Translations under genes and position numbers: made by a program
Notes under the pieces: generated by a model
Database searches by the model: none
Seen by the model: the letters and a program-made list of their open reading frames with translations, nothing else
Told to the model about the DNA's origin: nothing
Shown: positions 3 through 23,163 of the stretch, in pieces
Numbering within the stretch: position 1 is the stretch's first letter
How the letters are laid out: each line of letters starts with the position of its first letter
IMG/VR virus record: IMGVR_UViG_3300025828_000014
Direction: 5' to 3' (one strand)
Length of the DNA stretch: 64,000 nucleotides
From: a virus

Positions 3-1661
3 TCTACCGTTGAAGTAAGTTAATACAGATGAAATAGTTCTAGCATTAGAATTTAATGCAGCGTCATATCTAATAGCATCTACTAATAGCCTTGTATCTC
101 TTGCGCATTTTGCTTCGTTATAACTAAATCCTGCGTAGATACTTGGCGAGCCAGCTGCATTAGAAACTTGTAAGTTTACCCAATCAACTACATCTTGTGC
201 AATTTCATCTCTTTTATTATCAATTAATAGTTTTGCAAATTTATAACCAGGATCTCTAAAACGCAAAACAAATTCTTCAACTGGAGCATCTCGATTTATA
301 CCCGTAATAGTAATAGTTTGTTTACCTTCACTAGCACCAGTTGACACAACATGAGCACGGTCAAATTCAAATGCTTTAGGCGAATAGCCTGAACTTCGTA
401 GCGCATATAAACCAAAGTTTGTAGCAGAGTTGGTAATAGAACAATATCCGCCTGATTGTGTATAAACACCATTGAGTAGGAAAATTTGGAAACAAGACAC
501 GATCTGTGCATAAGCATCGTTAAGTAGTCGCCAACCTGTGCCTCCAAATGAAAGCATGGTATATGCGTTAGCAACCATTGATTTACCTTGTTCAGGTATA
601 GAACCAATGACTGGATTCTCAGCCTCAATATTGTAACGTGGAACGTTTGGAGATTCAACTAATGCACCGTCAATTTTAGCACCACTACCTCCTAAGAACG
701 AAATAATTGAACAGTTCTGTGTATATGGAGAAGTAACAATTGTTGGTTTTGTATTTGGCAAGTTTGTATATTCAGCACGGTCAGTTACATCAGTAGCATT
801 TGGATCGTCAAACACTGTAGCGTAATCCCATGTAATCAACGGAACTTGGTTATCATCAACCCCGTCTCTAAATGTAAATTCACCAAAGTAACATGCGTTA
901 CGAACACGTAGCATGTCCAAGTTAGCATTTGCAGGACGGATAATACAACCACGCAAACCGTCACCTTTGATAACAACGTTATCAGGAACAATAACTGGGT
1001 TATCTTCTGTGTAGTCACCAACAGCAACTTTAATGTTTACTCTAGTTCCGTTGACTAAGCCGCTAGGGTTATAAACTAATGCGGAAGCAAGTTTACATGC
1101 TCTTTTAACAGTTTTTACCGGAGCACTCTGTCCGTCATTAGCGTCATCACCTTGTTCAGCAGAAACGTAGATAACGTTACCACCAAATACGTCAGCATCA
1201 GCAAATTCTAGTTGTCCGTTACCATCTGTTTTAAGTATTTGTCCAACAGTTCCATTGACAAGAGGCAGAGTCAAATTATAACTATTAGGCAAGTTGTAAG
1301 GTGCTTGAATACTAATACCATCTTCACCAGATGCAATACTTTCACGCCAAGTAATTTTACCAAAATCTTCCATGTCAAGGTCGTCTTTGATATTGAAGCC
1401 TGCGTTAGTGACTGTCATTTTTTCGTCGCCGTTGACAGTCATGCTGATTTCAGCACTTGCACTATCTAACAAGTCATCTACTCTAACTTCAGTATTTCCT
1501 TCAAAAATTCTTTTTGTGATATCTTGGACAGTGTTATCATCTCTAAGTAGATAAACTTTACCGTCTGCTGTATTGATGGCTAATTCGCCGGATTCAAGTT
1601 GTGCTACACTAGGTTGATTACCAGCGACCGCACTTCGCTTGTGTCTAATTGTTGTTGCCAT
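3..1661 (-). CDS. Large fibre-like virion protein, runs off left edge; paralog of the 2620-aa protein with at least one phycobiliprotein-like CxRD repeat
   Basis: Absent from the ORF track because no stop is in the window. My translation from ATG at 1661 (SD AGGAGG at 1670-1675) gives MATTIRHKRSAVAGNQP..LESGELAINTADGKVY (fibre N-terminal motif), then YVSAEQGDDANDG..VKTVKRA..GDYTEDNP..GDGLR (beta-helix-like, shared with 1768..9630), then YNEAKCARDTRLLVDAIRYD. Confidence 0.85.
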   Translation of the reverse strand, partial: MATTIRHKRSAVAGNQPSVAQLESGELAINTADGKVYLLRDDNTVQDITKRIFEGNTEVRVDDLLDSASAEISMTVNGDEKMTVTNAGFNIKDDLDMEDFGKITWRESIASGEDGISIQAPYNLPNSYNLTLPLVNGTVGQILKTDGNGQLEFADADVFGGNVIYVSAEQGDDANDGQSAPVKTVKRACKLASALVYNPSGLVNGTRVNIKVAVGDYTEDNPVIVPDNVVIKGDGLRGCIIRPANANLDMLRVRNACYFGEFTFRDGVDDNQVPLITWDYATVFDDPNATDVTDRAEYTNLPNTKPTIVTSPYTQNCSIISFLGGSGAKIDGALVESPNVPRYNIEAENPVIGSIPEQGKSMVANAYTMLSFGGTGWRLLNDAYAQIVSCFQIFLLNGVYTQSGGYCSITNSATNFGLYALRSSGYSPKAFEFDRAHVVSTGASEGKQTITITGINRDAPVEEFVLRFRDPGYKFAKLLIDNKRDEIAQDVVDWVNLQVSNAAGSPSIYAGFSYNEAKCARDTRLLVDAIRYDAALNSNARTISSVLTYFNGR

Positions 1662-1767: not shown

Positions 1768-4700
1768 TTAAAAGCTACCACCGTCAATTGTGTCAGTCCA
1801 AACTGGAGTTGCATCACTACCACTTGTTACAGTAAGAATTTGGAAACTGTTACTTGCGTCACTTGTTCCTGCTGCTGGAGTAACTTGAATTGGATTTTGT
1901 GCATTACCATACAAAATACCGTCTGTAGTAAATGTGCTTGCACCCGTGCCTCCGTATTGCACTTCAAGGTCGGTTACAAGTGTCAGTGTGCCTGCATCAA
2001 GATTTGTAACAATAATTCTATTGTTAACAGCATCAAGCATTTCTGTGCTATCGTCTGCAAAAATACTACCTCTAAATCCTGCTGCGTCAAGTATACCAGT
2101 TACAAACAAGTCTTGATCGATTTGAACATTAGTTGTAAACGTGCTTGTTGTTTCACTTAGTCTAAGTTTTTCAACACTTGCACCTGCAATTCTTGTTGTA
2201 AACACCATGTCAAAATCTTCGTCACCAGTGGTAACATCAGTGCTTATAACATCTATTCTACCAGCAGTAACATAGTTGTTATTTGTAATTTCTTGTTCAA
2301 ATGGTAGTCCTATGCCTGCGCCAACTGCTGCACCGCCTGTTTGGTTATGGTGAGCAAGTATAATTGGATCAACTATGTTATCCGCAGCACTATCTGATTC
2401 GTTGCTAATAATTTTAAAGCTATCAGTTGTTCTAATAGTGTTAGCTGGAATAAAGATTTCATCTGTGGCTTTTTCAGTAAGTTGTAATACATCATTTTCG
2501 TTACCACTGATATAACCTCTAACATGTAAGTTTCTTGCTATTCCTACACCGCCTGCTACTGTCACTGCACCAACATTGTATGCTGTGCTTTCAGTGGTGT
2601 TATCAAATTCTGTTAGAATTGAATCTTTAATACTTAATGTTGTTGGATCAAGTGTAATTCTCTCAACACCGTTTGTAAAGAATTCAAGTGTATCTTCGTC
2701 TGCGCCGGGTGAAGTTTCTGGACGAATAAATGTATCTTGATCTACATCTTTAACACCGCCTAATGTTCCCCAGTTAGCACCGTCATAACCTTCAAATGTC
2801 TCGTCTGTGGTATTGAAACGTATTTGTCCAATTGCTGCTGTTGAGTCGGCTCCACGTTGTGCTGTTGTTCCTACTGGAATCTGTAGTGTGCCAACACTGT
2901 TGAATATTACAATTTCACTGTTTACTTGGAATACACTGTCTGTTGACACAGCACCCATTGTAATAGTAGTTGCATCTCCAAATGCATTTACAGTTTGAAC
3001 ATTTGCATTCAGCAAGTTAAACGTATCAATTCGGTTTGTTGTAATATCACCACCGTCAACATTTAGATCTAAATCAATATCAACATTGTGTTTGATATTT
3101 GTAGTTCCGATACCAACTGCACCAATTGTTAAGTTTGTAGTGCCGCCGGCAAAGTTTAATATGTTAGCATTGTCATTTAACAAATTAAACGTAGTGCTTG
3201 TAGTTGTAATATCGCCGCCGTCTACTGCAAGATCAGCATCAATTTCTACATTGCCTAATACAGTTCCACCTGTGAGTTTGTTGAGATATCTATTTTCAAC
3301 ATAGTTTACAACTGCAACTTGTGTTGGAACAGTGTTAATGTCGCTTGCACCTGTGCTTGCTCTCAAATCTGAACTGTTGCTAACTTCTTTAAGTTCAACA
3401 CCAACTGGAATACCAAAACGTTTAAATGGTCCAATACTTGCAATACCACTTAAACTAATTTCCTCTGCATTAAGTGTAATAGCACCAGTAAGTGCGTTTA
3501 CGTTAAAGAAGTTACCAACTCTAAAGTTACCAATTTGGTCAACTGTTCCGCCTGCAAATACTTTACCGTTGTCTGTTTCTGTAATTTCGTTTTCTGCTAT
3601 AGCACTACCGCCAAAGAACGGAAGTGCGTTATAAGTAACGCCAGCACCTACATATTCAAAAGCATGTCCTGATGTTGAAACAGTTGAAACGTTTTGCATA
3701 CTACCAAGTGTGTTTTCTGCAACATATGTGATTTGTGGAAATACATCAAGTTCTGCTACACCACCATATGTTAAGTTTAATAACCTTATTGCTTCATCTT
3801 CAATTGCTTGTGCGTCTGCTAATACTAATTCACGCTTTGCGTTTGCACTAGTTTCTGCATTTGCTGCATAATCATGGTCAATTTCATTTGGTAAAACTGG
3901 ATATATGCCTTGAGATATAACTTCGGCTATCTTAGTAACATTGTTTTCAATTGACAGTGTTGCACTTGATGTTCCACCTGTTGGATTATAGGTTTGTGTC
4001 AAACTATTGTCGTCACTTGCTACAACTTTTTGGTTTTGGCCAATCTTGCTCATTATGCTTGCAAGATGTTTGTAAGCAAATTCTGTAACTCCTTCTTGGT
4101 CAGCGTTACTACCTGCTGTAGTAATACCTGCAAGAATTGTTCCTGTATAGTATGCTTCTCCTGCTCTGCGAGTTTGTTTGTTACCACCATACATCATATC
4201 GTAAAGTGCAGCATCAATTATGTATTTTGTATCTCTTTCACACTTTGCAACATTGTAGCTAAATCCAATAATGTTATCTCTAATAAAGTCAATCACGCCT
4301 TGTTGTATTGTTGTATTTGCAGTTGAAAGTGCATCAAGTGCAATATTTGTTGACACTGTTACCCAACTTGTGTCAGGTTCTTGATCGTTTGGTGTGCTCA
4401 ACAAGTTGCCTGCTGTAATAGCATCGATTGTAATGTTGAACAAGTTGTTAGAAGTTGTAGCTTCAGCACTTGTTCCATATGGTCCAACCAAAGACTGTGT
4501 TTCAGTGTTTCCTGCAGTTGGTGTTACTGTTATACCTTGAATTACTTGAGCAGCAACAGTTTTAACTCTTGTAATAGCATCAGCTGTTTCGTTTTCTTGT
4601 CCGTATACTTGACTATCTCCGTTAAGGAAATAGCTTCTTGCAGTTGCCAACGAACTTACATTTCCTGTATACAATAGATCGTGTGTTGTTGATTCAACAA

Positions 4701-7700
4701 GATATCCAATATCTCTGCGACATTTAGCTTGATCATAACTAAATCCATTTTGATTTGTATTGATATAATCAATTACACCTTGGACTAAATCAGCACTAGA
4801 GCTGTCGCCAGTTGATTGTATTAAATCTCTGCTTGCAATTCTTGTGGAAGACGCACCTGTTTCGTCAACAGCAGTTTCAGTTGGCAATATTTCAAGTGTG
4901 TTTGCCCTAACTACATCCTCTACAATAGTAGAAAGCACGTTGACTTGTGTAGCTTCGGTAGCACTTGCATTACCAGCACTTGTATTTTGTCCTGGATAAG
5001 TTCCAACAACAATCTGTTGTAAAATTACCCCTAGCTGATTAAGTGCGTCTGCTGTGCCATCTCTTTGATCATATGGTAACACACTTGCACTGCCTTCAAA
5101 GTAAGATCTTGCATTTTGAATACTTGCAAGGTTAGTGTTATACATAATATCATGACTTACTGCATCAACAATATATCCTGTGTCTCTTTCACATTTTGTT
5201 TGATCGTAAGTTAAATTTGGAAGATTTGTAGTAATCCAACTTATTAATTCACTTATAATAAATGTTCTATTATTTTGTAGTTGCAGTTGTGCATTATTTC
5301 TGTTTGCATTTCCAGAAGGATTAGGAAAACTCAATGCGTCTGCATTGCCTGTGCCGTTTTGTATAATGTCAATTATTTCATCAAATAATGCATTACAAAT
5401 TGCAACACTTGCACTATCTGATGCAATTAAATTAGCAACTTCGCCTTTTAAATGTGTAATTGCTGCAATTGTTTGTGTTATTTGATCGCTAATAACATAT
5501 GCGCTCACTGCTCTGTAGTAAGACAATCCTGCTGTGATACTGTTATAATTTGACCCTGTAATTAAATCATTGCAAACTGCATCTAGAATTAATTGTGTAT
5601 CTCTAGCACACTTTGCACTGTCGTATACAAAGTATTGATTGTTAATGTATGCAATTGCTTCTTCTTGCAAGAATGCTTTGTTTTCTTGTAGCTGTCTAGC
5701 TGCATCAATAAGTTCTTGACTTGCTGGCACTGGTGCTGGATATGTTTGTCCTTCACTTGGCAGTGTTTGGTATTCGAGTAGTGTTAATACAGTATCAAAA
5801 CCGTCTGTTACTCTAGTTGTAGCAGTTGTGTCAGTAGTTGTATATGTGAGTGCTAAACGTTTTGCTTCTCTAATTGCAAGTATAGTTGCAGGCAATTGGT
5901 CATCTTTCACTGTAGATGCATTTGCTCTAATGTATGCTTGTCCTGCTACAATAGCATTATGGTTTGTGTTTAATCTTGCATCTCTTACTACCGCATCAAT
6001 AATTAAACCTGTGTCACGTTTACATTTTTCTCTATCGTATGTAAAGTTTGGATAATTTGCAAGGATCCAAGTTGTTGATGCAGCGGCAAAGTTATCTTGT
6101 TGACCAAATATAGAACCAAATGCTGTTTGCAAGCTGGCGTCTGCCCAGTCAGTGACTGCTCTATTTGTAGCAGGTAAACTGTCAAGATTACCCGCAGTCA
6201 AAACATCGATAATGATTTGTATTAAACTAGTTGCGCTGCCTACTTCTGTTGCACTTGCAGGGTCACCTGCTGTGTTTTGTATTTCGTTGTTTCCAGGACT
6301 TTTTGTTAATGCTGATTCTAAAAGAATGCCTGTTACAACACCTTGCAAATGTGTATATGCTTGTATTGTAGCAGTTGTTTCATCTGTGCTTCCTAATTGG
6401 CTTGAAGTTCCTACAAAATAACTGGTTGCAGTTTGTCTTGTAGCACTATTGCCTTCATATAAAATGTCGTATATTAAAGCATCAACAATGTATCCAACGT
6501 CTCTTTCACATTTGTCAGCATCATATGTTAATGTTGGATTTTGTTGATTTACATAAGCTCTTACTTCTTTTTTAATAAAAGTTCTGTTTGCAATAAGCTG
6601 ATTTCTTGCGTTTATTCTGTTTGTAATTACACCAGTTGGTAATGGATATGTAATTGCATCAGCATTAGTGATATTACCAATTGTAATTTCTTTAATTACA
6701 GTATCTTGAATAGTTGTTTTTGCATTTTTCCAACTATTAACATCAGTTTGAATACCTGCTGCTGCCCATGTGTATGTTGGTTCAACAAGTGCTGGCATGC
6801 CGCTAACACTATTTGCTGTAATTACATCAGCAATAATTTTTACTAAACCTTCTGCATCATCTACTTCATCTGAACTTCCTAAATTTCCTGTAGTAGTTTG
6901 TCCAGGATAGTTTTCAATAACAATTTGACTTACAATATTACTTGCTAAGTTGTTATATGCAGCCGCAGTAATTGCTCTTTGACTTTCTGGTAGCTGGCTT
7001 GTTGTGCCTTCAAAATATGCATCTGCTGCTCTGCGGGTTGCAAAGTTGCCTCCGTATTGAATGTCAAAACTTATTGCATCTACAATGTATTTTGTATCTC
7101 TTGTGCATTTTAATGTATCATAAACAAAAGTAGGATAATTAGCTGAAATCCACGCATTTACTTCGCTTGCAATAAAATCTCTGTTTGCTTGTAATAGAAT
7201 TCTTGAATTTGTTGCGCTACCGTTTGTTCCTGGATCTGTCCAAGTAATAGTGTCTGCTGAAACATCTGTGCTGACTTGACCATTCTCTAAAATATCTAAA
7301 ATTTCATCAAACGCTGCATCTGATCTTGCTTCAGCAGTCGCATTTGACATGTAAGTGCCAGTTGCAAGTGTTTTCATATATTGATAAGATGCTTTTGTCT
7401 GTTCAAACTGAGCACTCAAAACGTATGCACTATTTGCACGTTGATATGATAATCCTGTAGTAACAGCATTGTAATTTGTTCCAAGTGCTACATCAAATGC
7501 AACACTATCAACAATATAACCAACATCTCTTCTACAAGTAGCAGAGTTATAAGCTCTACCTGTAATAATGTCAATAACTTCGTCCCATGCTGCTGTGACT
7601 CGTGTTGTTGCTGTTGAATCAGCAGATACATCAGATAATGCTAATGTTAATCCTTTAAGGTAGTTGTAAGCAGCTACCGTTACAGTAGTTTGAGATCCTG

Positions 7701-9630
7701 TAGTTGAAGAAGTAGTGTTATAAACATCAGCACTTGCTCTTGCATATGCAAGTCCTGCTGTAACACTATTATAGTTTGTTCCGAGAACAGTGTCGTATGC
7801 AACTGCTTCGGTTATAAGTCTTACATCTCTTTCGCATTTTTCTTGATCGTATGACAAGTTTGTAAATTGTTCTGCAATGTATTTTATTGTTTCTTCTACA
7901 ATAAAATCTTTGTTTGCAATAATAGCATCTTTTGCAGCAACAGCACCTGGGCTACTTGCATTTGTATCATCGTATACAATATCAGGTGCAGCACTACTGT
8001 CTTCGTTTGCAATAAAGTTTGTAATGATTGCAGTTTTTTCAATTACATCGTATCTATACTGTTCATTTGCAGGATCACTGTCAGGAATACGTGCAAGTAT
8101 TTCGTCTCTAGTTGCTTCAATTCCGTATATAGTAGGCGCCAACTGTTGGTTAAGAACTTTTGCACTATTTGCTCTAAGATAGCTTCTACCTGCTGCGATA
8201 CTTTGATAATTAGTTCCTAGTGCAACATCACCCATAATTGCATCAATTATTCTTGCAACATCTCTTCTACAAACAGTTTCGTCATATATAAACGGCTGTT
8301 GTGTGATATTGTTGCCAGTTACATAATATACTGTTGAGTCGCCTTCAAACTTTATAATACTACCGGTTTGTGGAATATCACGCAAACTGTTCACTTCTAT
8401 AGTTTGGTTTTTAATAAGGTTAGCTGTTGCAGTTGCTAGTGAACTAAATCCGCCACCCACGAGTGTGATAGTTGGCACACTTCTATATCCGCTACCAGGA
8501 TCGTCAACTGTAATACTTGTTACTTCTCCTCGCAACAAATCAACACTTGCTGTGCCTTGTGCAGTAGTTCCTCCTGGTTCTTCGGGTGGATCAAATACTA
8601 CTGTAGGTGTTCCTGTGTATCCAGCACCTGTGCTGTTTACAGTTACACTACCTACATTTGATGTATATGTTTGTGATGGTCTTGCAGTTGTATATACTTT
8701 GTCAAACAATCCATCAGCAATAATACCATATGTGCCAAAGTCGCTAACTGAGTTTGAAATTGATAAGTAGCCACCTTTTGTAGCCATAAATCCAATACGG
8801 GTGAAAACTGTAAAGCAGCTAACAATCTGTGTATAGCCAAAGTTTGTAATATGGAAACCAATACCACCTTGAGCAATTTGCGTAAAGGCATCAGCAACGA
8901 AACTGAACACCAAAGAACGTTGATCATAATCATTACCATCAACCAACATACCATTGCCGCCGCCGTTAGTATTAACACGTTTTGCAAGTGGAACATTTGG
9001 ATCGTTTTCTATTGGTCTTGCTCCTGCTGGAACACCTTCGATTTGTTCTGTAACAAAAGGAGTAAACTCTGTTCCATCGTTTAACCAAGGACCGTTCATG
9101 TTTGTGCAGTTTTGAACATATGGAGATACAGTTACTAATGCACCTTCTCTAATTCTTGCACACCAACCTGGATCTCTCAAACCACGAAATGTTACTTGGA
9201 ATATATAACAAGCATTATCCATTAAGAAAATATCTTTAGTAGGATTGTTTGGATAAATTTGACAGTTACGTAAACTATCACCTCTAACAGTCATACGCTC
9301 TTTTAACGTAATTGGATTGTCTTCGTAAAAATCGCCTGGTGCAAGTTGAATAGTTGCACCTGCTGGTGCTGCTTCAACTGCTGACTTAATTGTTCTTTTG
9401 GCTCTTGATGCGCCTGCACCTTTACCATCGTTGTCATCGCTACCTTCTAAAGAAACATAGTATATAAGATCGTTAGTTGGACCTGAGCTTGATCCAGTAA
9501 CTTTCAAGTCACCTGCAACTTTCACTGTTCCTGTGGACGGTGTAAGTTCAATCGTGCCGTCATTGTTAATGATCAACTCGTTGTTGTCAATTTTTCTCTG
9601 ATATATACTCTGTTTCTTTACGTATTCCAT
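1768..9630 (-). CDS. Giant virion fibre-like protein (2620 aa): N-terminal beta-helix-like domain, ten phycobiliprotein-like helical repeats, C-terminal fibre segments
   Basis: ORF track. YYVSLEGSDDNDG..KRTIKSA..APGDFYEDNP..RGDSLR N-domain; 10 copies of Y(D/N)xxxCxRD..(I/L)(V/I)DA...D....N; C-terminal GQIRFNTTDETFEGYDGANW and IDGGSF motifs typical of phage fibres. Confidence 0.8.
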   Translation of the reverse strand: MEYVKKQSIYQRKIDNNELIINNDGTIELTPSTGTVKVAGDLKVTGSSSGPTNDLIYYVSLEGSDDNDGKGAGASRAKRTIKSAVEAAPAGATIQLAPGDFYEDNPITLKERMTVRGDSLRNCQIYPNNPTKDIFLMDNACYIFQVTFRGLRDPGWCARIREGALVTVSPYVQNCTNMNGPWLNDGTEFTPFVTEQIEGVPAGARPIENDPNVPLAKRVNTNGGGNGMLVDGNDYDQRSLVFSFVADAFTQIAQGGIGFHITNFGYTQIVSCFTVFTRIGFMATKGGYLSISNSVSDFGTYGIIADGLFDKVYTTARPSQTYTSNVGSVTVNSTGAGYTGTPTVVFDPPEEPGGTTAQGTASVDLLRGEVTSITVDDPGSGYRSVPTITLVGGGFSSLATATANLIKNQTIEVNSLRDIPQTGSIIKFEGDSTVYYVTGNNITQQPFIYDETVCRRDVARIIDAIMGDVALGTNYQSIAAGRSYLRANSAKVLNQQLAPTIYGIEATRDEILARIPDSDPANEQYRYDVIEKTAIITNFIANEDSSAAPDIVYDDTNASSPGAVAAKDAIIANKDFIVEETIKYIAEQFTNLSYDQEKCERDVRLITEAVAYDTVLGTNYNSVTAGLAYARASADVYNTTSSTTGSQTTVTVAAYNYLKGLTLALSDVSADSTATTRVTAAWDEVIDIITGRAYNSATCRRDVGYIVDSVAFDVALGTNYNAVTTGLSYQRANSAYVLSAQFEQTKASYQYMKTLATGTYMSNATAEARSDAAFDEILDILENGQVSTDVSADTITWTDPGTNGSATNSRILLQANRDFIASEVNAWISANYPTFVYDTLKCTRDTKYIVDAISFDIQYGGNFATRRAADAYFEGTTSQLPESQRAITAAAYNNLASNIVSQIVIENYPGQTTTGNLGSSDEVDDAEGLVKIIADVITANSVSGMPALVEPTYTWAAAGIQTDVNSWKNAKTTIQDTVIKEITIGNITNADAITYPLPTGVITNRINARNQLIANRTFIKKEVRAYVNQQNPTLTYDADKCERDVGYIVDALIYDILYEGNSATRQTATSYFVGTSSQLGSTDETTATIQAYTHLQGVVTGILLESALTKSPGNNEIQNTAGDPASATEVGSATSLIQIIIDVLTAGNLDSLPATNRAVTDWADASLQTAFGSIFGQQDNFAAASTTWILANYPNFTYDREKCKRDTGLIIDAVVRDARLNTNHNAIVAGQAYIRANASTVKDDQLPATILAIREAKRLALTYTTTDTTATTRVTDGFDTVLTLLEYQTLPSEGQTYPAPVPASQELIDAARQLQENKAFLQEEAIAYINNQYFVYDSAKCARDTQLILDAVCNDLITGSNYNSITAGLSYYRAVSAYVISDQITQTIAAITHLKGEVANLIASDSASVAICNALFDEIIDIIQNGTGNADALSFPNPSGNANRNNAQLQLQNNRTFIISELISWITTNLPNLTYDQTKCERDTGYIVDAVSHDIMYNTNLASIQNARSYFEGSASVLPYDQRDGTADALNQLGVILQQIVVGTYPGQNTSAGNASATEATQVNVLSTIVEDVVRANTLEILPTETAVDETGASSTRIASRDLIQSTGDSSSADLVQGVIDYINTNQNGFSYDQAKCRRDIGYLVESTTHDLLYTGNVSSLATARSYFLNGDSQVYGQENETADAITRVKTVAAQVIQGITVTPTAGNTETQSLVGPYGTSAEATTSNNLFNITIDAITAGNLLSTPNDQEPDTSWVTVSTNIALDALSTANTTIQQGVIDFIRDNIIGFSYNVAKCERDTKYIIDAALYDMMYGGNKQTRRAGEAYYTGTILAGITTAGSNADQEGVTEFAYKHLASIMSKIGQNQKVVASDDNSLTQTYNPTGGTSSATLSIENNVTKIAEVISQGIYPVLPNEIDHDYAANAETSANAKRELVLADAQAIEDEAIRLLNLTYGGVAELDVFPQITYVAENTLGSMQNVSTVSTSGHAFEYVGAGVTYNALPFFGGSAIAENEITETDNGKVFAGGTVDQIGNFRVGNFFNVNALTGAITLNAEEISLSGIASIGPFKRFGIPVGVELKEVSNSSDLRASTGASDINTVPTQVAVVNYVENRYLNKLTGGTVLGNVEIDADLAVDGGDITTTSTTFNLLNDNANILNFAGGTTNLTIGAVGIGTTNIKHNVDIDLDLNVDGGDITTNRIDTFNLLNANVQTVNAFGDATTITMGAVSTDSVFQVNSEIVIFNSVGTLQIPVGTTAQRGADSTAAIGQIRFNTTDETFEGYDGANWGTLGGVKDVDQDTFIRPETSPGADEDTLEFFTNGVERITLDPTTLSIKDSILTEFDNTTESTAYNVGAVTVAGGVGIARNLHVRGYISGNENDVLQLTEKATDEIFIPANTIRTTDSFKIISNESDSAADNIVDPIILAHHNQTGGAAVGAGIGLPFEQEITNNNYVTAGRIDVISTDVTTGDEDFDMVFTTRIAGASVEKLRLSETTSTFTTNVQIDQDLFVTGILDAAGFRGSIFADDSTEMLDAVNNRIIVTNLDAGTLTLVTDLEVQYGGTGASTFTTDGILYGNAQNPIQVTPAAGTSDASNSFQILTVTSGSDATPVWTDTIDGGSF
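4100..8290 (-). repeat. Ten tandem protein-level repeats (~100-200 aa spacing), each with invariant C-x-R-D
   Basis: Cys codons at 8269-71, 7834-36, 7534-36, 7105-07, 6508-10, 6022-24, 5608-10, 5191-93, 4720-22 and 4240-42. Confidence 0.95.
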
Positions 9631-9960
9631 TTATACTTCCAAATAACTTATAGTTGCGCTCAATCTATTTGAGTCAGGGCTATTCAAGACTACAGAGTCT
9701 CCTTCCTCTAAAATTAGACGTTCAGTGTTAAACGAAAATGTTTCCTGAGCTGGCATATCAATTGTATTCAATACTTTGTTAGCGTTGCTTTTTGAACTAC
9801 CACTTGGTATCACATGCATGTTAAAACTACTATTAAAACTTACATCACTTGTTGTAGCGTAGTTGCACACTACTATTGTTGTAATTGCATATTTTTTGCC
9901 AGCAGGGACTAACAGTATCGTTGTGTCTGTTGCTAATATTAGGTTACTGTTAATTGCCAT
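9631..9960 (-). CDS. Small beta-rich virion structural protein
   Basis: ORF abutting the giant fibre gene; SD AAGGA upstream; context only. Confidence 0.6.
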   Translation of the reverse strand: MAINSNLILATDTTILLVPAGKKYAITTIVVCNYATTSDVSFNSSFNMHVIPSGSSKSNANKVLNTIDMPAQETFSFNTERLILEEGDSVVLNSPDSNRLSATISYLEV

Positions 9961-9971
9961 TTGCTTTTCCT

Positions 9972-11009
9972 TTAAAATATAATACTATACAATAGTGCTT
10001 TGTTTCTACTAATAATTTCGTCTTGCGTTGAGTTTTCGTTTATAAAATATATACCAGTTCCTCCGTCTGCTTCGGTTTTTGCGTAAATTTTTACGCCATC
10101 ACTTGGTGCTACTGGATCTGTAATTTTTGGAAACAGAGCCGGAGTGCCAAATTCAACACTACCTGTTCCAGTGCCTTCTATAACAACGTTTGAGTTTAAG
10201 TTTATAGTTGAAATTCTATTTGTTTCAATTTTAACTTCTAATAACTCTATACTTGCTTGATAAAATTTTGCAACTTCACTGCTATCTACAGTAATCATTG
10301 CTAAACTTTGACTACTGGTTTCGTCTTGATCAGCAACAGATACAGTTGTATCTCCGCTTTCAATTGTATCAGTAAAGTTATAGGCGTTGTATGCTTTTAC
10401 ATAATCTTTTACTGCTCTAATGTTTGGAATAGCATCATCGTCATATGGAGCAGAAAGTCTATCTTCTAAGTTTACATTTGGAGTTATGTCATCTCCACTA
10501 TAAGGCCATAGTTGTTTCTCATAAGATACTGTTCCTCTAACAGAAACAACATTTTGTCCTTCGCCTAGTAAAACTAAATCGTCATCAGCAAACGTTCCGA
10601 CAAAATTGGTAAAAATACCTATTGTTTGATTATTGTTGTCTTTAAATACCCAACCACCTTTGTTAGCATCAACACCTCCAGTTCTTGAATCATACCAAGT
10701 AACATCTTCGTCATACAAAAGTTTTGCATCTGGAAAATTACCTCGATCGATTATAAATCCTGCTGTGTTTAATGTAACACCATTTCCGGTTTCACCATTG
10801 TTAAGGACAATTACATTATCTGTGATATTTAAATCTTGGCTATCTAAAGTTGTTGTAGTGCCAACTACGTTTAAATTGCCGTAAAAATTAAATGTTCCTG
10901 TGGTCGCAGGAGTAAGTCCGTCTCCAGCACGGAAATCTACAGTTCCACCATCATTAATTTTTACTCGATACAGATCAACGTTGTATTCACTTATCTTGGC
11001 GCTAGGCAT
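9972..11009 (-). CDS. Virion structural / fibre-associated protein
   Basis: GNLNVVGTTTTLDSQDLNITDNVIVLN motif, similar to the one in fibre 56733..58571 (GNMVVEGTQTALEVATLRVEDKQIEL). Confidence 0.6.
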   Translation of the reverse strand: MPSAKISEYNVDLYRVKINDGGTVDFRAGDGLTPATTGTFNFYGNLNVVGTTTTLDSQDLNITDNVIVLNNGETGNGVTLNTAGFIIDRGNFPDAKLLYDEDVTWYDSRTGGVDANKGGWVFKDNNNQTIGIFTNFVGTFADDDLVLLGEGQNVVSVRGTVSYEKQLWPYSGDDITPNVNLEDRLSAPYDDDAIPNIRAVKDYVKAYNAYNFTDTIESGDTTVSVADQDETSSQSLAMITVDSSEVAKFYQASIELLEVKIETNRISTINLNSNVVIEGTGTGSVEFGTPALFPKITDPVAPSDGVKIYAKTEADGGTGIYFINENSTQDEIISRNKALLYSIIF

Positions 11010-11025
11010 TTAAGTAACTCCTAAC

Positions 11026-11487
11026 TTATGACTGGCGAGGTAATGCTACACTAAGAGTCGTATTAGGGTTGTTACTATCTTCTAAAGCACTTGCGTCATA
11101 ACCAATGTTATAAATTGCTCCGTCTCCTGTAGTCACAGTTGCCGCTCCGCCGCTGCCTTCTAATTGCACAGTTCTATTGCGTAATTTTGTTACTTGATAA
11201 ACTGTTGAATCTGAACCTACAGCATCGATTCTAAATTCGCCTGCACTCATTGCACCGTTTGCTTTGTTTACAAGTGTCATTATTTCGTCGCTTGCTGCTG
11301 ATCCTGCTGCTGGTGAAAAAGTTCCTGTTGCATCAGAATCTAGTCTGATCATGAATTTTGCATCTCCAACTTGTTTTACAATGTGTGCTGCTGTTGTTGC
11401 TTCTGACCCGCCTGTAAAATAGTGGCGACTTACTGCGATACGGCCTGACCCGTATCCGATTTTATCTTTATTAATTGGACGTCCCAT
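11026..11487 (-). CDS. Hypothetical structural protein (head-associated?); start revised to MGRPINK
   Basis: Strong SD AAGGAG precedes the ATG at 11487; the longer ORF-track start lies in a structured leader directly under a TAAATA box. Confidence 0.7.
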   Translation of the reverse strand: MGRPINKDKIGYGSGRIAVSRHYFTGGSEATTAAHIVKQVGDAKFMIRLDSDATGTFSPAAGSAASDEIMTLVNKANGAMSAGEFRIDAVGSDSTVYQVTKLRNRTVQLEGSGGAATVTTGDGAIYNIGYDASALEDSNNPNTTLSVALPRQS

Positions 11488-11568
11488 TTTTTTCTCCTTT
11501 TGACGTTCTAGGTCTACGCGGGTGGGTCCGCATAAGTCCTCATCGAGAGGCTCTCCTCTTGACACATG

Positions 11569-11867: not shown

Positions 11868-13040
11868 TTAGCTGAAGCTTAGGTTTGCAGTTGTTACTGC
11901 AACTTTGCTTAGGTAATCAGCTGCGTTACCAAGAGACGAAGCTGTGTTGTTTAACTCAACATATCCGTAACGAGTCATAAATGATACAACTGGCTCGAAT
12001 GTGTCTGGGTCAAGCACAACACCACTGCTCATCAATGGAATGTATGGGCAGTAGAACGCTGCTGCGTCTGATTCGCTTGTGCCTTTGTAGCCAACAAGAA
12101 CATCATCTGAAGATGCATATGTGTTTACATATACTTTCATTGCGTTGTTCAATGTTCCAACTAGTTTTGTGTTAGTTGGTGCTTCAAAAGTTCCTTCAGT
12201 TGTTCTTGCGAAAGCTGAAGTTGTTGCTGATTGCAGGATTGTCAATACAGTTGGTGAAACAACAGCCCAGTTACCTGCGCCTCTGCGTGTGCGCTGAGCA
12301 ATTAGGTTTGACACTTTGTTGATTTGAACTGCAAGAGCTGCATGTTCGTCGCCAACAAATGTTGCTGTCCCTGATACACCTGCTTGGTTGTATGTTTCAG
12401 CTGCTGAGCCTGCCAATGATGTTAGGCTTGCAATTACTTCTTGGTCGATTTCAGCAGTAATCTCTTGAGCAAGTGCTGCCATGATTTCTGCTTCTACGTC
12501 GATACCATGCTGTGACTGAGCGTCTTGAGCTGCTTCGAATGTCCAACGTGCGCTTAGTTTGCGTGATTTGGCTTCGACTGTTTGCTTCAAGATTTGGATG
12601 CTTAGTCTGTTACCAGCTGCACCTTCAAGTGCAGATGTAGCTGCTGCTTTATCATCAGCTGCACCAGAATAACCTTCAGCAATTTTGAATGGGCTAAGAG
12701 CTTCATCGCCTGCTGCGGCATCTGTTCCACTTGTTGAGTTGAATGCGTCTGCATAACGAACTCTCAATGTGTGGATTTGACCAACTGGACCAGTCATTGG
12801 CTGAACGCCGACCAACTCGTTAGCAATAACGGTTGGCATAACACGTCTGATCACTGGGAGGATCACACGGTTTAATGTTGCGACATTACCAGCAGAAGTA
12901 GCACCAGCTGTTGCAGTCTCCATCAAATGCTTACGAGTATTTTCAAGAGTTGTTTCCATAACAGCTTTTTTGTTGCCTTTTAGGCCTTCAGTCAAGGCAC
13001 TTTTTGTCTCCTGCCAGCGACTTTCTAATAGTTCTGACAT
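11868..13040 (-). CDS. gp23: Major capsid protein, T4 gp23-like
   Basis: LVGVQPMTGPVGQI, VEAKSRKLSARWTFEAAQD, EITAEIDQE, FYCPYIPL, FMTRYG motifs. Confidence 0.97.
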   Translation of the reverse strand: MSELLESRWQETKSALTEGLKGNKKAVMETTLENTRKHLMETATAGATSAGNVATLNRVILPVIRRVMPTVIANELVGVQPMTGPVGQIHTLRVRYADAFNSTSGTDAAAGDEALSPFKIAEGYSGAADDKAAATSALEGAAGNRLSIQILKQTVEAKSRKLSARWTFEAAQDAQSQHGIDVEAEIMAALAQEITAEIDQEVIASLTSLAGSAAETYNQAGVSGTATFVGDEHAALAVQINKVSNLIAQRTRRGAGNWAVVSPTVLTILQSATTSAFARTTEGTFEAPTNTKLVGTLNNAMKVYVNTYASSDDVLVGYKGTSESDAAAFYCPYIPLMSSGVVLDPDTFEPVVSFMTRYGYVELNNTASSLGNAADYLSKVAVTTANLSFS

Positions 13041-14147: not shown

Positions 14148-14774
14148 TTATTGGAGCCTGCTTATTATGTTTAATAAGCTCTCTGCAATGTATTTTTGTG
14201 CCTTTGGATCGCCTTGAACTTCTCTACTTGTGAGAAATGCCTTATATCCACCTCTTTCATTCATGAGTTGTTCGTAAATTGGAGTTGGATATGCACCAGG
14301 GGCGCTGGGCTGAGCCACAACGTCCACAGTGATTATTTCAAAACCTTGGACATTACCTTGGTTATCAACTTCACCACTACCTCTCGATGAAACACCTAAT
14401 TTTACTCCGCTTTCAAGCATTGTTTTAACTAGTTGTCCCATCGGAGTTGGTAAAATCTTCAACTTACCATAACCGTTTGGGCCATCCATCCACATATCTG
14501 TGATCATATGGCTTACACGATCTAAGTTAATATTAAGTCCTTCAGGATGATCGACTTCACCGCACACTGAGTATCCGTTAGCTATCTGCTCATTGAGCGT
14601 GGTGACAGCCCTGCCAATTTCTTCTACCGGATAGACACGCTTATTTGCGTTAAGAACTCCACCCTGGATAAAGATGCCTTTCATGTGCAAATCTTTACCG
14701 CCTGTATCGTTTTCAGCAGACTCAACGACCATTCTAGCTTGGTCAAAACTCAGACATTCAGTTAATCGAAACAT
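14148..14774 (-). CDS. gp21: Prohead maturation protease, gp21-like
   Basis: GIFIQG..NANKRVYP, GEVDHP, GVSSRGSG, DVVAQPSAPGAY. Confidence 0.95.
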   Translation of the reverse strand: MFRLTECLSFDQARMVVESAENDTGGKDLHMKGIFIQGGVLNANKRVYPVEEIGRAVTTLNEQIANGYSVCGEVDHPEGLNINLDRVSHMITDMWMDGPNGYGKLKILPTPMGQLVKTMLESGVKLGVSSRGSGEVDNQGNVQGFEIITVDVVAQPSAPGAYPTPIYEQLMNERGGYKAFLTSREVQGDPKAQKYIAESLLNIISRLQ

Positions 14775-16840: not shown

Positions 16841-18550
16841 TTATGCCTCTGTTGCAGTATCGTCTGCTCCTACCGCAGTTTCGTCACCTCCAGCTGCAAT
16901 ATCGTCAGTTTCTACTTCATCTCCTGCTGTAGCTTCTAAATCATTATTGATGTCGCTTCCGGTGATACCTGCATCTCTTAATTGTGCTGCCGCATCAACA
17001 TCACCTGCATTAAAGTATTCGTCGTTTTCTTCACGCCACAGTCTTTCGTTTTCTGCAATTTCCTCTTTGCTCAATCCTAAGAAACGTCCAAGAGCAAATC
17101 TATTGGAAATAAACGGAATTTGTTGCATTTGTGCAAAAGTTGATATTCTGTTGTTATCAAGTTCAGCTTGTCTATAACTTGCAAAGTTTTGCGGAGGTTG
17201 CAGTTTTAGATCAAACATAGCAACATCGACATTGATACCTTTCTTATTGAGATACAGTTTGAATTCATTGTTAAAAACATCAGTAATCATGCTTTGCAAG
17301 CGTTCGCAATAATTGTTGAAACGCAATTCTTGAATATACGCTGTGCCCACTCTACCATCATTGTATTGGCTTGCACTGTCATCTGCGCCAGTTGGCAAGT
17401 AGCTCGAAGGAATACGCAAGCCACGTAGTAATTTGTTTGTAAAATACTTTAAATCGTCAATTTCTCCCAGATTTGTTCCGCCTGGTAGTGTTTCAACCTT
17501 ACTGCCGCGGCCTTCAGCAGTTTGAGGAAAGAAGTAGTCTTCGTTAATTGATAGCGGGTTGTAACTGCTGTCTATGACTGTTTGGCCACCGCCTGTCTTG
17601 GATGGGATTCTTCTTTGATGAATTTCCGTTTTTACACGCTCCACAAACTGCATAGCAAGGTGTGATGGCATGTTGCCCACATCAACGTAGAATACTCTGC
17701 GCTCAGGCGCACGTTGGACACGATAGATAATAATCGCATCTTCAAGCAGTTCTTTTTGCTTGTATACTTTGAAAATACTTTCTAGCAAACTGTTGCCAAA
17801 AGGAAAGTTTTGGTCTAATCCTTCGCTCATTGACAAGTGAACCACATGTTGTGCATCAACTGCTGTTTCATTTGCTTCGTTGCCAAATCTACTGTTGTTG
17901 CTGTCAGGTGTTCTTCCTGTCATATATTTTTGATCAAGTGTTTGATAGCCAGCGCCGCCGCCTGGGCCATATGCTTGATTTGTGTTGATTTTTGTTGCAC
18001 TCAGTGCTTCAAAGGCAATGTTAATGTCTTTGACAATATACTGTTCTGGACGTTTGCCTTGTGATTCGTTAACAATAATTTTAGTTACATTGGCTGGATC
18101 AACATGAAACCACTTTTGTGTTTCTGGATCTCTAATAAAGAACTGATCGCCAAACTTAAACACGTTTCTAATAATTTTAAAGATACGCTTTTCAAATTCT
18201 TGTATCTTGCACCACTGTTTAAGATACTGGCCAATTACTTGAACTTCAGTGTTGGTTGGTGCTTTGCTGAATACCAGTTTAAATGGAGTTTGATTTTCTT
18301 TGTTTTTCTGTGAACAAAACTCTGCAAGTATATCAAGAGCAGCATTTACTTCACTGTCGTTATCCATGGTGTTGTATTGACCATAGCGTTCAATACGGTT
18401 TGGTGAACCAACATAAACATCTGGTAAGTGAGAACTGTAGTTTGCTGCTGCTGGACCTACGCCTTGGCCTTTGTTAAAGCTAAAAGGCGAATAGCTACCG
18501 CCAACATTCATACTTGTGGCTACTGGAGTAAAGTGTTTCTTCCAACTCAT
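16841..18550 (-). CDS. gp20: Portal protein, gp20-like
   Basis: LLEDAIIIYRVQRAPERRVFYVDVGNMP, EDYFFP..GRGSKVETLPGG, LRIPSSYL. Confidence 0.97.
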   Translation of the reverse strand: MSWKKHFTPVATSMNVGGSYSPFSFNKGQGVGPAAANYSSHLPDVYVGSPNRIERYGQYNTMDNDSEVNAALDILAEFCSQKNKENQTPFKLVFSKAPTNTEVQVIGQYLKQWCKIQEFEKRIFKIIRNVFKFGDQFFIRDPETQKWFHVDPANVTKIIVNESQGKRPEQYIVKDINIAFEALSATKINTNQAYGPGGGAGYQTLDQKYMTGRTPDSNNSRFGNEANETAVDAQHVVHLSMSEGLDQNFPFGNSLLESIFKVYKQKELLEDAIIIYRVQRAPERRVFYVDVGNMPSHLAMQFVERVKTEIHQRRIPSKTGGGQTVIDSSYNPLSINEDYFFPQTAEGRGSKVETLPGGTNLGEIDDLKYFTNKLLRGLRIPSSYLPTGADDSASQYNDGRVGTAYIQELRFNNYCERLQSMITDVFNNEFKLYLNKKGINVDVAMFDLKLQPPQNFASYRQAELDNNRISTFAQMQQIPFISNRFALGRFLGLSKEEIAENERLWREENDEYFNAGDVDAAAQLRDAGITGSDINNDLEATAGDEVETDDIAAGGDETAVGADDTATEA

Positions 18551-21315: not shown

Positions 21316-21346
21316 TTTTGATTCCTAAATTAACTACGCACTTAAT

Positions 21347-21377
21347 TAAATATGGTATATACTGTATAAGTTATTTA
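21347..21377. promoter_or_regulatory. Face-to-face pair of late promoter boxes (TAAATA + at 21347-21352; TAAATA - at 21372-21377)
   Basis: Both hexamers lie in the 75-nt gap between the divergent genes. Confidence 0.6.
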
Positions 21378-21390
21378 TCCGGAGAAAAAT

Positions 21391-22245
21391 ATGAGCGAAA
21401 TAACAGCAAATCCGCTGATGAAACATTTTCGTCAGCCCAAATTGTTTATCGATTTACCTAGTAAAGGGTTGTTCTATGCACCTGGATCGCTAGAAAAAAC
21501 AGAAAACAATCAATATGCAGTTTATCCTATGACGGCAAAAGACGAAATCATGATCAAAACGCCTGATGCATTGCTCAACGGACAAAGCACAGTCAATGTG
21601 ATTCAAAACTGTGTGCCTGCTATCAAGAACGCATGGATGGTGCCAAGTATTGATCTTGATGCACTGCTTACAGCAATTCGTATTGCAACTTATGGTGAAA
21701 TGTTAACTATGGATATAACTATTCCAGGCACAGCAGAAGAGCGTAGCTTTGAAACAAACTTAGTTGAATTACTAGACGAACTTAACAGTCAAACTTATGA
21801 TCCAATCTTTGAACACAACGAGTTTAAAGTAGAAACACAACCAATGAACTATAGACAGTTTACAGATGTTGCACTCAAAACATTCGAAGAACAGCGTATT
21901 CTTCGTATTGTTGATGACGAAAAATTGAGTGAAGTAGAAAAACTATCTCAGTTTAATGAAACATTCTCAAGACTCACAGAAATGAATCTAACAAGTGTGT
22001 ATTCAAGTGTTGTAAGCATCACAGTAGGTGATCAAACTGTAACTGATAAAAATCACATCATGGAGTTTTTACAGAACGCACCTGTTGAATTTTACAAGTC
22101 ACTGCTTGACCATGTTGATAATCAACGCAAAAAATTTGCTGTAAAACCAAGAAAAATTGTCACAACAGAAGAGGATAGAGCAACTGGCGCTCCTGAAACA
22201 TTTGAAGTGCCTATTAACTTTGACGCTTCAAATTTTTTCGCATAA
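21391..22245 (+). CDS. gp26: Baseplate hub assembly protein, gp26-like
   Basis: IDLPSKG..Y, PMTAKDEI, SIDLDALLTAIRIATYGE, C-terminal NFF; these match T4-like gp26 patterns. Confidence 0.75.
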   Translation: MSEITANPLMKHFRQPKLFIDLPSKGLFYAPGSLEKTENNQYAVYPMTAKDEIMIKTPDALLNGQSTVNVIQNCVPAIKNAWMVPSIDLDALLTAIRIATYGEMLTMDITIPGTAEERSFETNLVELLDELNSQTYDPIFEHNEFKVETQPMNYRQFTDVALKTFEEQRILRIVDDEKLSEVEKLSQFNETFSRLTEMNLTSVYSSVVSITVGDQTVTDKNHIMEFLQNAPVEFYKSLLDHVDNQRKKFAVKPRKIVTTEEDRATGAPETFEVPINFDASNFFA

Positions 22246-22250
22246 GGATC

Positions 22251-22469
22251 TTGGCTCTCCCCGTGGAGAAAATATTACAAGAGGTCAAGGTCCAAGAAGA
22301 AGAAATTAAACAACTCCGCTACGATTTAGCCAAAATGGTTTGGCACATGCGTGGTGGTTTGAGTTATGATGATGCTTTTATGCTGTCTCCAGAGGACAGA
22401 GAAGTTATAGCTAAACTTGCCGAAGATAATTTAGAAGTTGCTAAGAAAACACAACAGCCGTTTTTTTAA
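22251..22469 (+). CDS. gp51-like small hub/chaperone ORF, possibly expressed as a -1 frameshift extension of gp26
   Basis: MRGGLSYDDAFMLSPEDRE motif; TTG start with poorly spaced SD; the -1 frame is open back through T TTT TTC at 22233-22239. Confidence 0.6.
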   Translation: MALPVEKILQEVKVQEEEIKQLRYDLAKMVWHMRGGLSYDDAFMLSPEDREVIAKLAEDNLEVAKKTQQPFF

Positions 22470-23143: not shown

Positions 23144-23163
23144 GAGAGTTTCCTTAATATAAA

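Follow-up and report, generated by a model that had tools for sequence, protein, structure and literature searches.

Why should a phage carry a giant structural protein in which the motif Cys-x-Arg-Asp, familiar from bilin-binding proteins, recurs ten times along a single chain? The question is raised by the window, a 64,000-nucleotide stretch of viral DNA (IMG/VR record IMGVR_UViG_3300025828_000014). An earlier note, made from the letters alone, had described the protein as a virion component built from phycobiliprotein-like domains that retain the bilin-binding site.

Judged from its sequence and neighbours, the protein, P0001, is a fibre-type virion protein encoded among the late genes of an uncultured aquatic jumbo phage. 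Genes for portal, prohead protease and major capsid proteins lie upstream on the same strand, which places P0001 in a late structural module; together with the fibre-type ends of the protein this bears out the earlier assignment to a virion fibre. P0001 matches the PHROG tail-fibre families phrog_5342 (5.9e-107) and phrog_4527 (7.6e-93), as well as phrog_17885 and phrog_9851, and the annotations of its homologues read virion structural, short tail fibre or gp7 protein. A phmmer search of the whole protein against the PDB, together with a Pfam search, returned nothing beyond a weak match to PF00502. The marine-cyanophage framing of the earlier note fits poorly, as the capsid gene is closest to those of jumbo phages of Proteobacteria. 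The gene psbA is absent from five large related viral contigs, so nothing marks the lineage as a cyanophage, and the host is probably not a cyanobacterium.

P0001 has three parts, an N-terminal part, an all-helical shaft of ten globin-fold domains (residues 414–1947) and a fibre-type C-terminal part. The features are as follows, with E values for the repeats taken from the family HMM unless PF00502 is named:

1768..9630, minus strand: P0001 gene, virion fibre-type protein; single open reading frame of 2620 amino acids; phrog_5342 and phrog_4527; downstream of the portal, protease and capsid genes.
8392..9630, minus strand: N-terminal region, residues 1–413; PHROG tail-fibre matches at residues 43–177.
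7957..8391, minus strand: repeat 1, residues 414–558, Cys454 (codon at 8269); E 6e-30; CRRD.
7657..7956, minus strand: repeat 2, residues 559–658, Cys599 (codon at 7834), C-terminal part shortened; E 5.9e-35, HMM positions 4–145; CERD.
7228..7656, minus strand: repeat 3, residues 659–801, Cys699 (codon at 7534), without the first two helices; E 9.4e-29, HMM positions 32–156 only; CRRD.
6631..7227, minus strand: repeat 4, residues 802–1000, Cys842 (codon at 7105), C-terminal extension of ~45 residues; E 1.7e-51; CTRD.
6145..6630, minus strand: repeat 5, residues 1001–1162, Cys1041 (codon at 6508); E 8.1e-57; PF00502 E 0.015, profile positions 33–139 of 155.
5731..6144, minus strand: repeat 6, residues 1163–1300, Cys1203 (codon at 6022); E 4.5e-36; CKRD.
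5314..5730, minus strand: repeat 7, residues 1301–1439, Cys1341 (codon at 5608), the modelled domain; PF00502 E 0.0012, 19.3 bits, profile positions 29–153 of 155.
4843..5313, minus strand: repeat 8, residues 1440–1596, Cys1480 (codon at 5191); E 8.3e-51.
4363..4842, minus strand: repeat 9, residues 1597–1756, Cys1637 (codon at 4720); E 4.6e-48; CRRD.
3790..4362, minus strand: repeat 10, residues 1757–1947, Cys1797 (codon at 4240); E 1.5e-45; CERD.
1768..3789, minus strand: C-terminal region, residues 1948–2620; phrog_9851 (tail fibre) at residues 1982–2117.
3..1661, minus strand: downstream gene for a second fibre-type protein, cut by the window edge; phrog_5342 (1.7e-97).

The nearest ESM Atlas clusters to the N-terminal region (0.98) are viral and 13–20% of their proteins carry DUF1565, which serves as a lead only; DUF1565 is a pectin-lyase-type beta-helix, and residues 1–413 are probably a beta-helix attachment or enzymatic part. 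For the C-terminal region the Atlas gave leads only (no higher than 0.89), to phage tail-fibre families, and residues 1948–2620 probably form the distal or receptor-binding part. The downstream protein starts a phycobiliprotein-like repeat of its own at residues 475–556 (repeat HMM E 2.6e-21, positions 3–74), where the window edge cuts it.

C-x-R-D occurs exactly ten times in P0001, at the cysteines listed above, against a chance expectation of ~0.03 estimated from the composition of the protein. The whole protein holds just seven further cysteines, two of which lie in the repeat region. With the family HMM, ten domains are recognised within residues 413–1923, corresponding to nucleotides 3790–8391, which agrees closely with the span of 3850–8290 and the ten CxRD repeats that the earlier note had reported; the strings it quoted are found in repeats 5 and 9. 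A MAFFT alignment of the ten units leaves Y36, C41, R43, D44, D55, N61, Y71 and T88 invariant.

Where do these domains come from? The sole Pfam family matched is PF00502, found independently on repeats 5 and 7 with nearly the whole profile covered; the two scores (19.3 and 15.7 bits) are below the gathering threshold of 22.2 bits, and the other eight repeats give no match. Searched against 177,635 PDB sequences, the repeat profile has phycocyanin 6jpr_A as its best match (E 0.018 and 0.0073), in an alignment that pairs F-x-Y-D-Q...K-C-x-R-D-x-G-Y with the repeats. When 92 repeats were compared with 31 phycobiliproteins in hhalign, the two families aligned over 119 columns with a probability of 91.5% (E 8.7e-7), and C41, R43 and D44 of the repeat fell on C84, R86 and D87 of the phycobiliproteins, the very equivalence that the earlier note had proposed. 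The phycobiliprotein set was drawn from cyanobacterial genomes; a 57-residue CpcA fragment had yielded only five near-identical CpcA sequences. The phycocyanin alpha string given in the earlier note was confirmed in cyanobacterial loci. Scored with the repeat HMM, a cyanobacterial paralogue of 156 residues with C-N-R-D ranks as high as CpcA.

Structure prediction gives the same relationship. An AlphaFold (AF2) model of repeat 7 has a pLDDT of 87.1 and a pTM of 0.85, and its best 50 PDB matches in Foldseek are all phycobiliproteins or the derived smURFP, with TM scores of 0.62–0.75. Among 48,161 chains compared by VIA, the first eight are all phycobiliproteins or ApcE (Z 13.4–16.3), with scores for repeat 7 of 16.3, 15.7 and 15.1 to ApcE and allophycocyanin; ApcE (4xxi_A) superimposes with a Z of 16.3 at 2.0 A over 119 residues. 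The helix that matches phycobiliprotein helix E begins with the Cys-x-Arg-Asp motif. The X-Y helices, on which the alpha-beta protomer and the (alpha-beta)3 rings of phycobiliproteins depend, are absent from the repeats, the alignments beginning at phycobiliprotein residue 31–47; each repeat opens at the equivalent of the helix that follows X-Y, and the domains are consecutive in one chain. Profile alignments, AF2 model, Foldseek and VIA thus agree with the suggestion of a globin-like core without the N-terminal dimerisation helices, and neither alpha-beta pairing nor ring assembly is expected of such repeats. Taken together, profile, fold and model confidence show that the shaft domains arose within the bilin-binding globin lineage, to which phycobiliproteins and BBAG-1/3 also belong.

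The family as a whole is informative on the site. The domain has 1424 cluster representatives and reaches 39 copies in a single protein, and no Pfam model is dedicated to it. Among 1017 full-length copies the Cys is kept in 95%, the Arg in 95% and the Asp in 98%; the most conserved residues of all are D55 (100%) and Y71 (99%), and Y36, C41, R43, D44, D55 and Y71 make up the near-invariant columns. The motif column holds 1443 of the 1729 match-column cysteines. Where the Cys is present (1443 of 1508 copies) the Asp accompanies it in 100% and the Arg in 97%, whereas in the 65 copies that lack the Cys these figures are 63% and 40%, with the structural D55 still at 100%. The Cys-less copies are nevertheless recognised as domains by the HMM, with a median of 64 bits. 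Statistically, this pattern across the family's sequences shows strong selection acting jointly on Cys, Arg and Asp, which disappear as a set. Since the triad is lost jointly while the fold survives without it, these statistics make it a functional site and not a requirement for folding.

In every CXRD globin tested the bilin is held by Cys, Arg and Asp, and BBAG-1 and BBAG-3, CXRD globins from non-photosynthetic bacteria, attach several bilins to themselves without a lyase (Rockwell et al. 2023, PMC10151467). We consider bilin attachment to the P0001 repeats to be plausible, with a probability of roughly 0.45. Each domain would take up a linear tetrapyrrole in the infected cell, either biliverdin, the product of a haem oxygenase, or, in cells that make one, a reduced bilin. 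A thioether bond would fix this ligand to the Cys, while the Asp would hold the pyrrole nitrogens and the Arg a propionate. As no lyase is seen in the phage, the domains would most likely catalyse the attachment themselves, in the manner of BBAG-1/3 and ApcE. Each fibre chain of the finished particle would display ~10 chromophores, for which light sensing that gates adsorption would be the likeliest use and photoprotection a second possibility.

A bilin source was sought in this lineage, following a check suggested in the earlier note. Haem oxygenase (PF01126), ferredoxin-dependent bilin reductase (PF05996) and CpeT were looked for without success in five related viral contigs, which span 91–238 kb and are 26–67% complete. 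The small ORFs of the window likewise yielded no gene for bilin synthesis or for a lyase, nor did the sequences flanking 44 related loci that had been gathered with a 596-residue segment as query. CpeT, the GC104 oxygenase and GC730, as encoded by S-PM2 and Syn1, are without homologues both in the window and in the 44 loci. With nothing found in the window, the loci and these incomplete contigs, no bilin source is known for the phage.

This result fits a purely structural shaft, in which a globin-fold domain, acquired in the distant past from a bilin-binding globin, would now serve as a mere rigid spacer without a tetrapyrrole. Its Cys-x-Arg-Asp would then persist for the sake of packing, helix capping, salt bridges between domains or a Cys cross-link. 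A two-domain model of repeats 7–8 (pLDDT 90.8, pTM 0.86) suggests that the domains pack head to tail as a rigid rod, and such a rod, in arrays of up to 39 copies, could set length. D55 and Y71, at the top of the conservation order, are not phycobiliprotein residues, and we know of no coloured phage preparations. Against a spacer, the 65 Cys-less copies keep the fold and D55, yet the triad is kept in ~96% of copies and lost jointly. An intradomain disulfide is impossible with one Cys per domain, and the triad comprises exactly the residues that hold the bilin in the tested CXRD globins (PMC10151467). We regard a pigment-free shaft as a real possibility, though not a probable one.

The site might instead hold another ligand: a cyclic tetrapyrrole such as haem, a metal ion, or a molecule on the host surface. 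The array would then act as a multivalent binding or scavenging surface. The fold is one shared with photocobilins, which bind B12 and bilin and form the next group in the VIA search (Z ~12), and with haem-binding globin-coupled sensors (~11), ahead of haemoglobins (~7); moreover, the pocket residues beyond helix E are unlike those of phycobiliproteins. However, the near-invariant columns include no conserved His for a haem iron, and the best matches in both sequence and structure are bilin binders and not haem globins, which makes a different ligand unlikely.

The wider distribution of the domain bears on bilin attachment from another side. Among 50,697 phage records 182 carry the repeat, all of them cyanophages. 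In a set of 16 cyanomyoviruses the 13 with the domain all encode CpeT, while the three without it all lack CpeT, and in S-PM2 and Syn1 cpeT lies upstream of the giant fibre gene that bears the repeats, ~0.7–1.5 kb away. In a gp23 tree the three phages without domain and CpeT form one clade, and S-PM2 and Syn1 form another. The co-occurrence had been considered as statistical support (Fisher p 0.0018) and was rejected as such, the three negatives being one clade. Adsorption is light-dependent in P-HM1, P-HM2 and S-PM2 and proceeds in the dark in P-SSM2 and P-SSP7 (PMC6628666); by the repeat HMM, the domain is present in the former three and absent from the latter two. Both the cpeT co-occurrence and the adsorption pattern amount to one phylogenetic contrast each. 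The T-type lyases act on Cys-beta155 and not on the Cys84 site (PMC2327270), so the link to cpeT is no simple match of enzyme and substrate. That the protein is instead internal or ejected, for example a decoy for lyases or antenna assembly in a phycobilisome-bearing host, would suit a domain confined among cultured phages to cyanophages and co-occurring with cpeT, but it is very improbable given the PHROG tail-fibre and baseplate families that match both ends of P0001, the location of the repeats in the gene annotated as the gp7 baseplate wedge initiator of P-HM2 and in a gene adjoining gp12 in S-PM2 and Syn1, the lack of psbA and bilin genes in the sequence searched from the phage and its relatives, and a capsid nearest to Proteobacteria jumbo phages.

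Extending bilin attachment to function, we tentatively propose, as an idea that we would not yet call probable, that virions with covalent bilins on their fibre domains provide the light sensor for cyanomyovirus adsorption and the acceptor for the phage bilin genes (cpeT, pebS, pcyA, pcyX, hemO), while the domains of the jumbo phage would attach a host bilin such as biliverdin to themselves. If so, the P0001 phage would be a light-sensing virion outside the cyanophages. The role of the lone T-type lyase gene cpeT in cyanophages has been called “unresolved” (PMC3037559); phage bilin production, which includes some phages of non-photosynthetic hosts, has been called “a mystery” (PMC3037559) and is still open (PMC11480375); and the light-dependent adsorption of some cyanomyoviruses is independent of photosynthesis, with host receptors or tail fibres suggested as its basis (PMC6628666). 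A globin domain with a bilin site in the fibres is one molecule that could answer all three questions. As the earlier note had supposed of a phage-encoded bilin acceptor, we found no description of one of this kind, nor of phycobiliprotein-like domains in phage structural proteins, in a literature mostly outside subscription journals. Even without a pigment the repeats would be a clear example of how a virion protein can re-use a bilin-binding globin domain. They are also all-helical, single-chain rod modules, whereas well-studied tail-fibre shafts are, to our knowledge, beta-rich trimers.

Compared with the phycobiliproteins (CpcA/B, ApcA/B and CpeA/B), of which CpcA is nearest by sequence, the repeats share a globin-like helical core that superimposes at 2.0–2.4 A over ~120 residues (Z 13–16), and a Cys-x-Arg-Asp flanked by F/Y-x-Y-D...K and G-Y with G-G ~18 residues on. 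They differ in being arranged in tandem in one giant chain of a fibre-type protein, and in the replacement of Arg93 (Asp in the repeats), Gly114 and other invariants, while their own invariant D55 and Y71 stand at variable or Gly positions; from these substitutions the putative pocket beyond helix E may be filled or reshaped. The best structural match to modelled repeat 7, the bilin-binding domain of ApcE (4xxi), is a phycobiliprotein-type domain inside a large multidomain protein and so a precedent for P0001, although ApcE belongs to the phycobilisome and contains a single domain of this type ahead of its linker repeats where P0001 has ten. The bilin of ApcE is attached at a different Cys. 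Its attachment is autocatalytic (PMC2327270).

The T4-like cyanophages S-PM2, P-HM2 and Syn1 carry the same repeat family (repeat HMM, E down to 1.9e-35). The proteins that bear it are, like P0001, late structural proteins of giant size, annotated in these phages as components of the fibre or baseplate: a ‘short tail fiber protein’ in S-PM2 (165928–177267) and Syn1_032 in Syn1, both adjoining gp12, and in P-HM2 a gene annotated as gp7, the baseplate wedge initiator. These phages have 3–9 copies per genome, in many cases with other domains lying in between, and they encode CpeT and in some cases haem oxygenase and bilin reductase, none of which was found in the present lineage. BBAG-1/3 resemble the repeats in having CXRD on a phycobiliprotein-related globin domain outside cyanobacteria. 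They differ in being small cytoplasmic proteins whose genes adjoin those for haem oxygenase, pre-PcyA, V4R and Fe-S proteins, neighbours of a type (PF01126, PF05996) that was found neither in the incomplete records of the five related contigs nor among the small ORFs of the window. As a working model for the P0001 phage, with a host that is probably not cyanobacterial, BBAG-1/3 are the most plausible.

The left third of the window encodes the late structural genes of a T4-like jumbo phage, all of them on the minus strand. Across part of its length, the capsid gene shares 80-85% DNA identity with jumbo phages that infect Xanthomonas, Serratia, Erwinia and Yersinia. The module comprises the following features:

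16841-18550, minus strand: portal gene
14148-14774, minus strand: prohead protease gene
11868-13040, minus strand: major capsid protein gene
9631-11565, minus strand: three ORFs of 109, 345 and 179 amino acids, located between the capsid and fibre genes
1768-9630, minus strand: fibre-type ORF of 2620 amino acids, matched along its whole length, both ends included, by PHROG tail-fibre families
3-1661, minus strand: second fibre-type gene, cut by the window edge (phrog_5342, 1.7e-97)
within the module, minus strand: several small unknown ORFs

None of the three ORFs preceding the fibre gene has a Pfam family and only one shows a PHROG match, which is weak and of unknown function; all three are candidate factors for assembling or modifying the fibre. 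The last visible residues of the second fibre-type protein (amino acids 475-556) begin another phycobiliprotein-like repeat according to the profile of the repeats, so the phage has at least two repeat-bearing proteins. Among the giant plus-strand structural genes elsewhere in the window, a 267-residue protein (35484-36287, plus strand) contains a CHAP peptidase domain (E 1.3e-7) and is probably a virion-associated cell-wall hydrolase.

The tandem C-x-R-D repeats reported in the earlier note, and their coordinates, proved correct: the 2620-residue protein contains exactly ten such motifs, spaced 100-199 residues apart, and the profile finds ten domains between amino acids 413 and 1923. Aligning the ten units gives the invariant columns Y36, C41, R43, D44, D55, N61, Y71 and T88. 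Within 7228-7956, repeat 2 has a shorter C-terminal end and repeat 3 is missing its first two helices, beginning at profile position 32; as the motif helix of repeat 3 comes immediately after the final helix of repeat 2, some helices may be common to both. For the N-terminal 413 residues the similarity is to viral proteins in some of which DUF1565, a beta-helix of the pectin-lyase type, is present, and this is a lead only; the 673 residues at the C terminus yielded nothing beyond weak leads to families of tail fibres.

The likeness of the repeats to phycobiliproteins was assessed by five lines of evidence, which are partly independent. Pfam returned no significant family, the sole near-match being PF00502, which turned up separately on two repeats and each time fell short of the 22.2-bit threshold: repeat 7 (19.3 bits, E 0.0012, covering positions 29-153 of the 155 in the profile) and repeat 5 (E 0.015). 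When an HMM of the ten repeats was searched against 177,635 PDB sequences the top match was the phycocyanin alpha chain 6jpr_A (E 0.018), which again came first (E 0.0073) with an HMM of 92 repeats from the window and 44 related viral loci; the match aligns the pre-motif helix, F-x-Y-D-Q, K-C-x-R-D-x-G-Y and the subsequent G-G. Comparing the 92 repeats with 31 diverse phycobiliproteins from cyanobacterial genomes by hhalign gave 91.5% probability (E 8.7e-7, 119 columns) and placed C41/R43/D44 on the invariant C84/R86/D87. This match begins at phycobiliprotein residue 37, past the N-terminal X-Y helices, in line with the earlier proposal of a core without them.

The AlphaFold2 model of repeat 7 has seven helices (pLDDT 87.1, pTM 0.85), and its top 50 Foldseek matches are exclusively phycobiliproteins, ApcE and the phycobiliprotein-derived smURFP (TM 0.62-0.75, rmsd 2.3-3 Å). 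In an exhaustive VIA comparison with 48,161 chains, the bilin-binding domain of ApcE came first (Z 16.3, 2.0 Å across 119 residues); the next seven chains were ApcE, allophycocyanin, phycocyanin or phycoerythrin (Z 13.4-15.7), and below them came photocobilins (approximately 12), RsbR and globin-coupled sensors (approximately 11) and haemoglobins (approximately 7). These results therefore place the domain in the bilin-binding branch of the globin fold and not among globins in general, in agreement with the earlier note's reading of the repeats as phycobiliprotein-like. Taken together, we regard homology, fold, motif and virion-fibre context as settled with high confidence. A 156-residue phycobiliprotein paralogue with C-N-R-D, from a cyanobacterial genome (L156:274-741, minus strand), reaches the score of CpcA when searched with the HMM of the phage repeats (E 0.0017, small database). 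This paralogue is a possible cyanobacterial BBAG and hints at the lineage nearest the phage domain.

Modelling repeats 7 and 8 jointly, from an alignment of 75 consecutive repeat pairs, gave pLDDT 90.8 and pTM 0.86 over 296 residues. Such a pTM would be unreachable if the two repeats were uncertainly oriented to each other; most likely, therefore, the array forms a rigid rod of helical beads within a single chain.

The repeat profile matched 1424 cluster representatives among 1.84 billion proteins at E up to 1e-3, 603 of them at 1e-30 or better, with up to 39 domains in a single protein; Pfam has no model for the domain. Across the 1017 full-length copies that the 150 best proteins contain, overall identity is approximately 25%, against 95% retention of Cys, 95% of Arg, 98% of Asp, 100% of D55 and 99% of Y71. 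The Cys column holds 1443 of 1729 match-column cysteines. Copies bearing this Cys (n=1443) have Asp in 100% and Arg in 97%, and those without it (n=65) in 63% and 40%, counts to be read knowing that copies are phylogenetically non-independent. The Cys-less copies are still confidently recognised and all 65 keep D55, so the triad is dispensable for the fold and is selected and decays as a unit, a pattern characteristic of sites that bind a ligand or carry out a reaction. The best single explanation of this selection is covalent bilin binding by the repeats, which we infer with a probability of about 0.45. The main rival is a structural rod whose motif is retained for other reasons; the modelled array would suit it, the dispensability of the triad for the fold has to be set against it, and we consider it possible, though somewhat less likely.

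Searching 50,697 phage records with repeats 5-8 (tblastn) matched 182, all from marine Synechococcus or Prochlorococcus phages or unnamed marine phages of cyanophage type. With the repeat HMM, 13 of the 16 cyanomyoviruses of Sullivan et al. 2010 have 3-9 domains each, and P-SSM2, S-SM2 and S-SSM7 have none. CpeT (PF06206) was detected in 11 of the 13 and in 0/3 of the domain-free phages; the other two, P-SSM7 and S-ShM2, are listed with a CpeT-like protein in Table 3 of that study (PMC3037559). Syn1 apparently has no CpeT in this table, but its gene Syn1_028 is annotated as cpeT in RefSeq and matches PF06206 (1.5e-35), which points to a shift in the table itself or in the rendering of its text.

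S-PM2 (163687-177267) and Syn1 (19673-33236) share the order GC730 hypothetical, cpeT, 2OG-Fe(II) oxygenase GC104, repeat gene and gp12, the repeat gene being a giant 'short tail fiber protein' (GC734). In a gp23 tree the domain-free three form one clade (100/99 support) and S-PM2 and Syn1 another (100/100), so the co-occurrence with cpeT and the shared cassette are each a single evolutionary contrast and not a statistic. T-type lyases target Cys-beta155 and not the Cys84 site (PMC2327270), so the biochemical pairing of CpeT with the repeats is not straightforward. The oxygenase adjoins both the lyase gene and the acceptor-like fibre gene, and may also act on the fibre. The 16 tRNA features (168556-173383) inside the 11.3-kb CDS S-PM2t009 of the RefSeq S-PM2 record are probably an annotation or coordinate error. 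In P-HM2 the repeats sit in a 4454-residue protein annotated as gp7 baseplate wedge initiator.

The domain is present in P-HM1, P-HM2 and S-PM2, which need light for adsorption, and absent from P-SSM2, which adsorbs in the dark, and P-SSP7, which both adsorbs and replicates there (PMC6628666). This link carries the same caveat as that with cpeT, being a single evolutionary contrast.

Nothing so far ties the present phage to bilin metabolism. The bilin-synthesis and lyase genes that the earlier note suggested seeking did not appear: among related viral contigs, the five largest (91-238 kb, 26-67% complete) yielded no haem oxygenase, bilin reductase or CpeT, nor psbA, an absence that holds for the sequenced parts of these fragmentary records. 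Ten small window ORFs gave no lyase-type family, and no homologue of the cassette genes of S-PM2 and Syn1 turned up in the window or the flanks of the 44 related loci. A host haem oxygenase alone would suffice as a source of biliverdin.

A literature search found no description of phycobiliprotein-like domains in phage structural proteins, in agreement with the earlier note, whose author knew of no phage bilin acceptor. In the ESM Atlas, PF00502 is annotated on 10% of the 258 viral proteins that make up one cluster, so public annotation has touched the domain without comment. Reviews and primary papers still describe the functions of cpeT and of bilin synthesis in phages as unresolved (PMC3037559, PMC11480375). 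The most relevant precedent for these repeats is BBAG-1/BBAG-3, globins of non-photosynthetic bacteria that share the CXRD motif and attach bilin without a lyase (PMC10151467), and the second is ApcE (PMC2327270).
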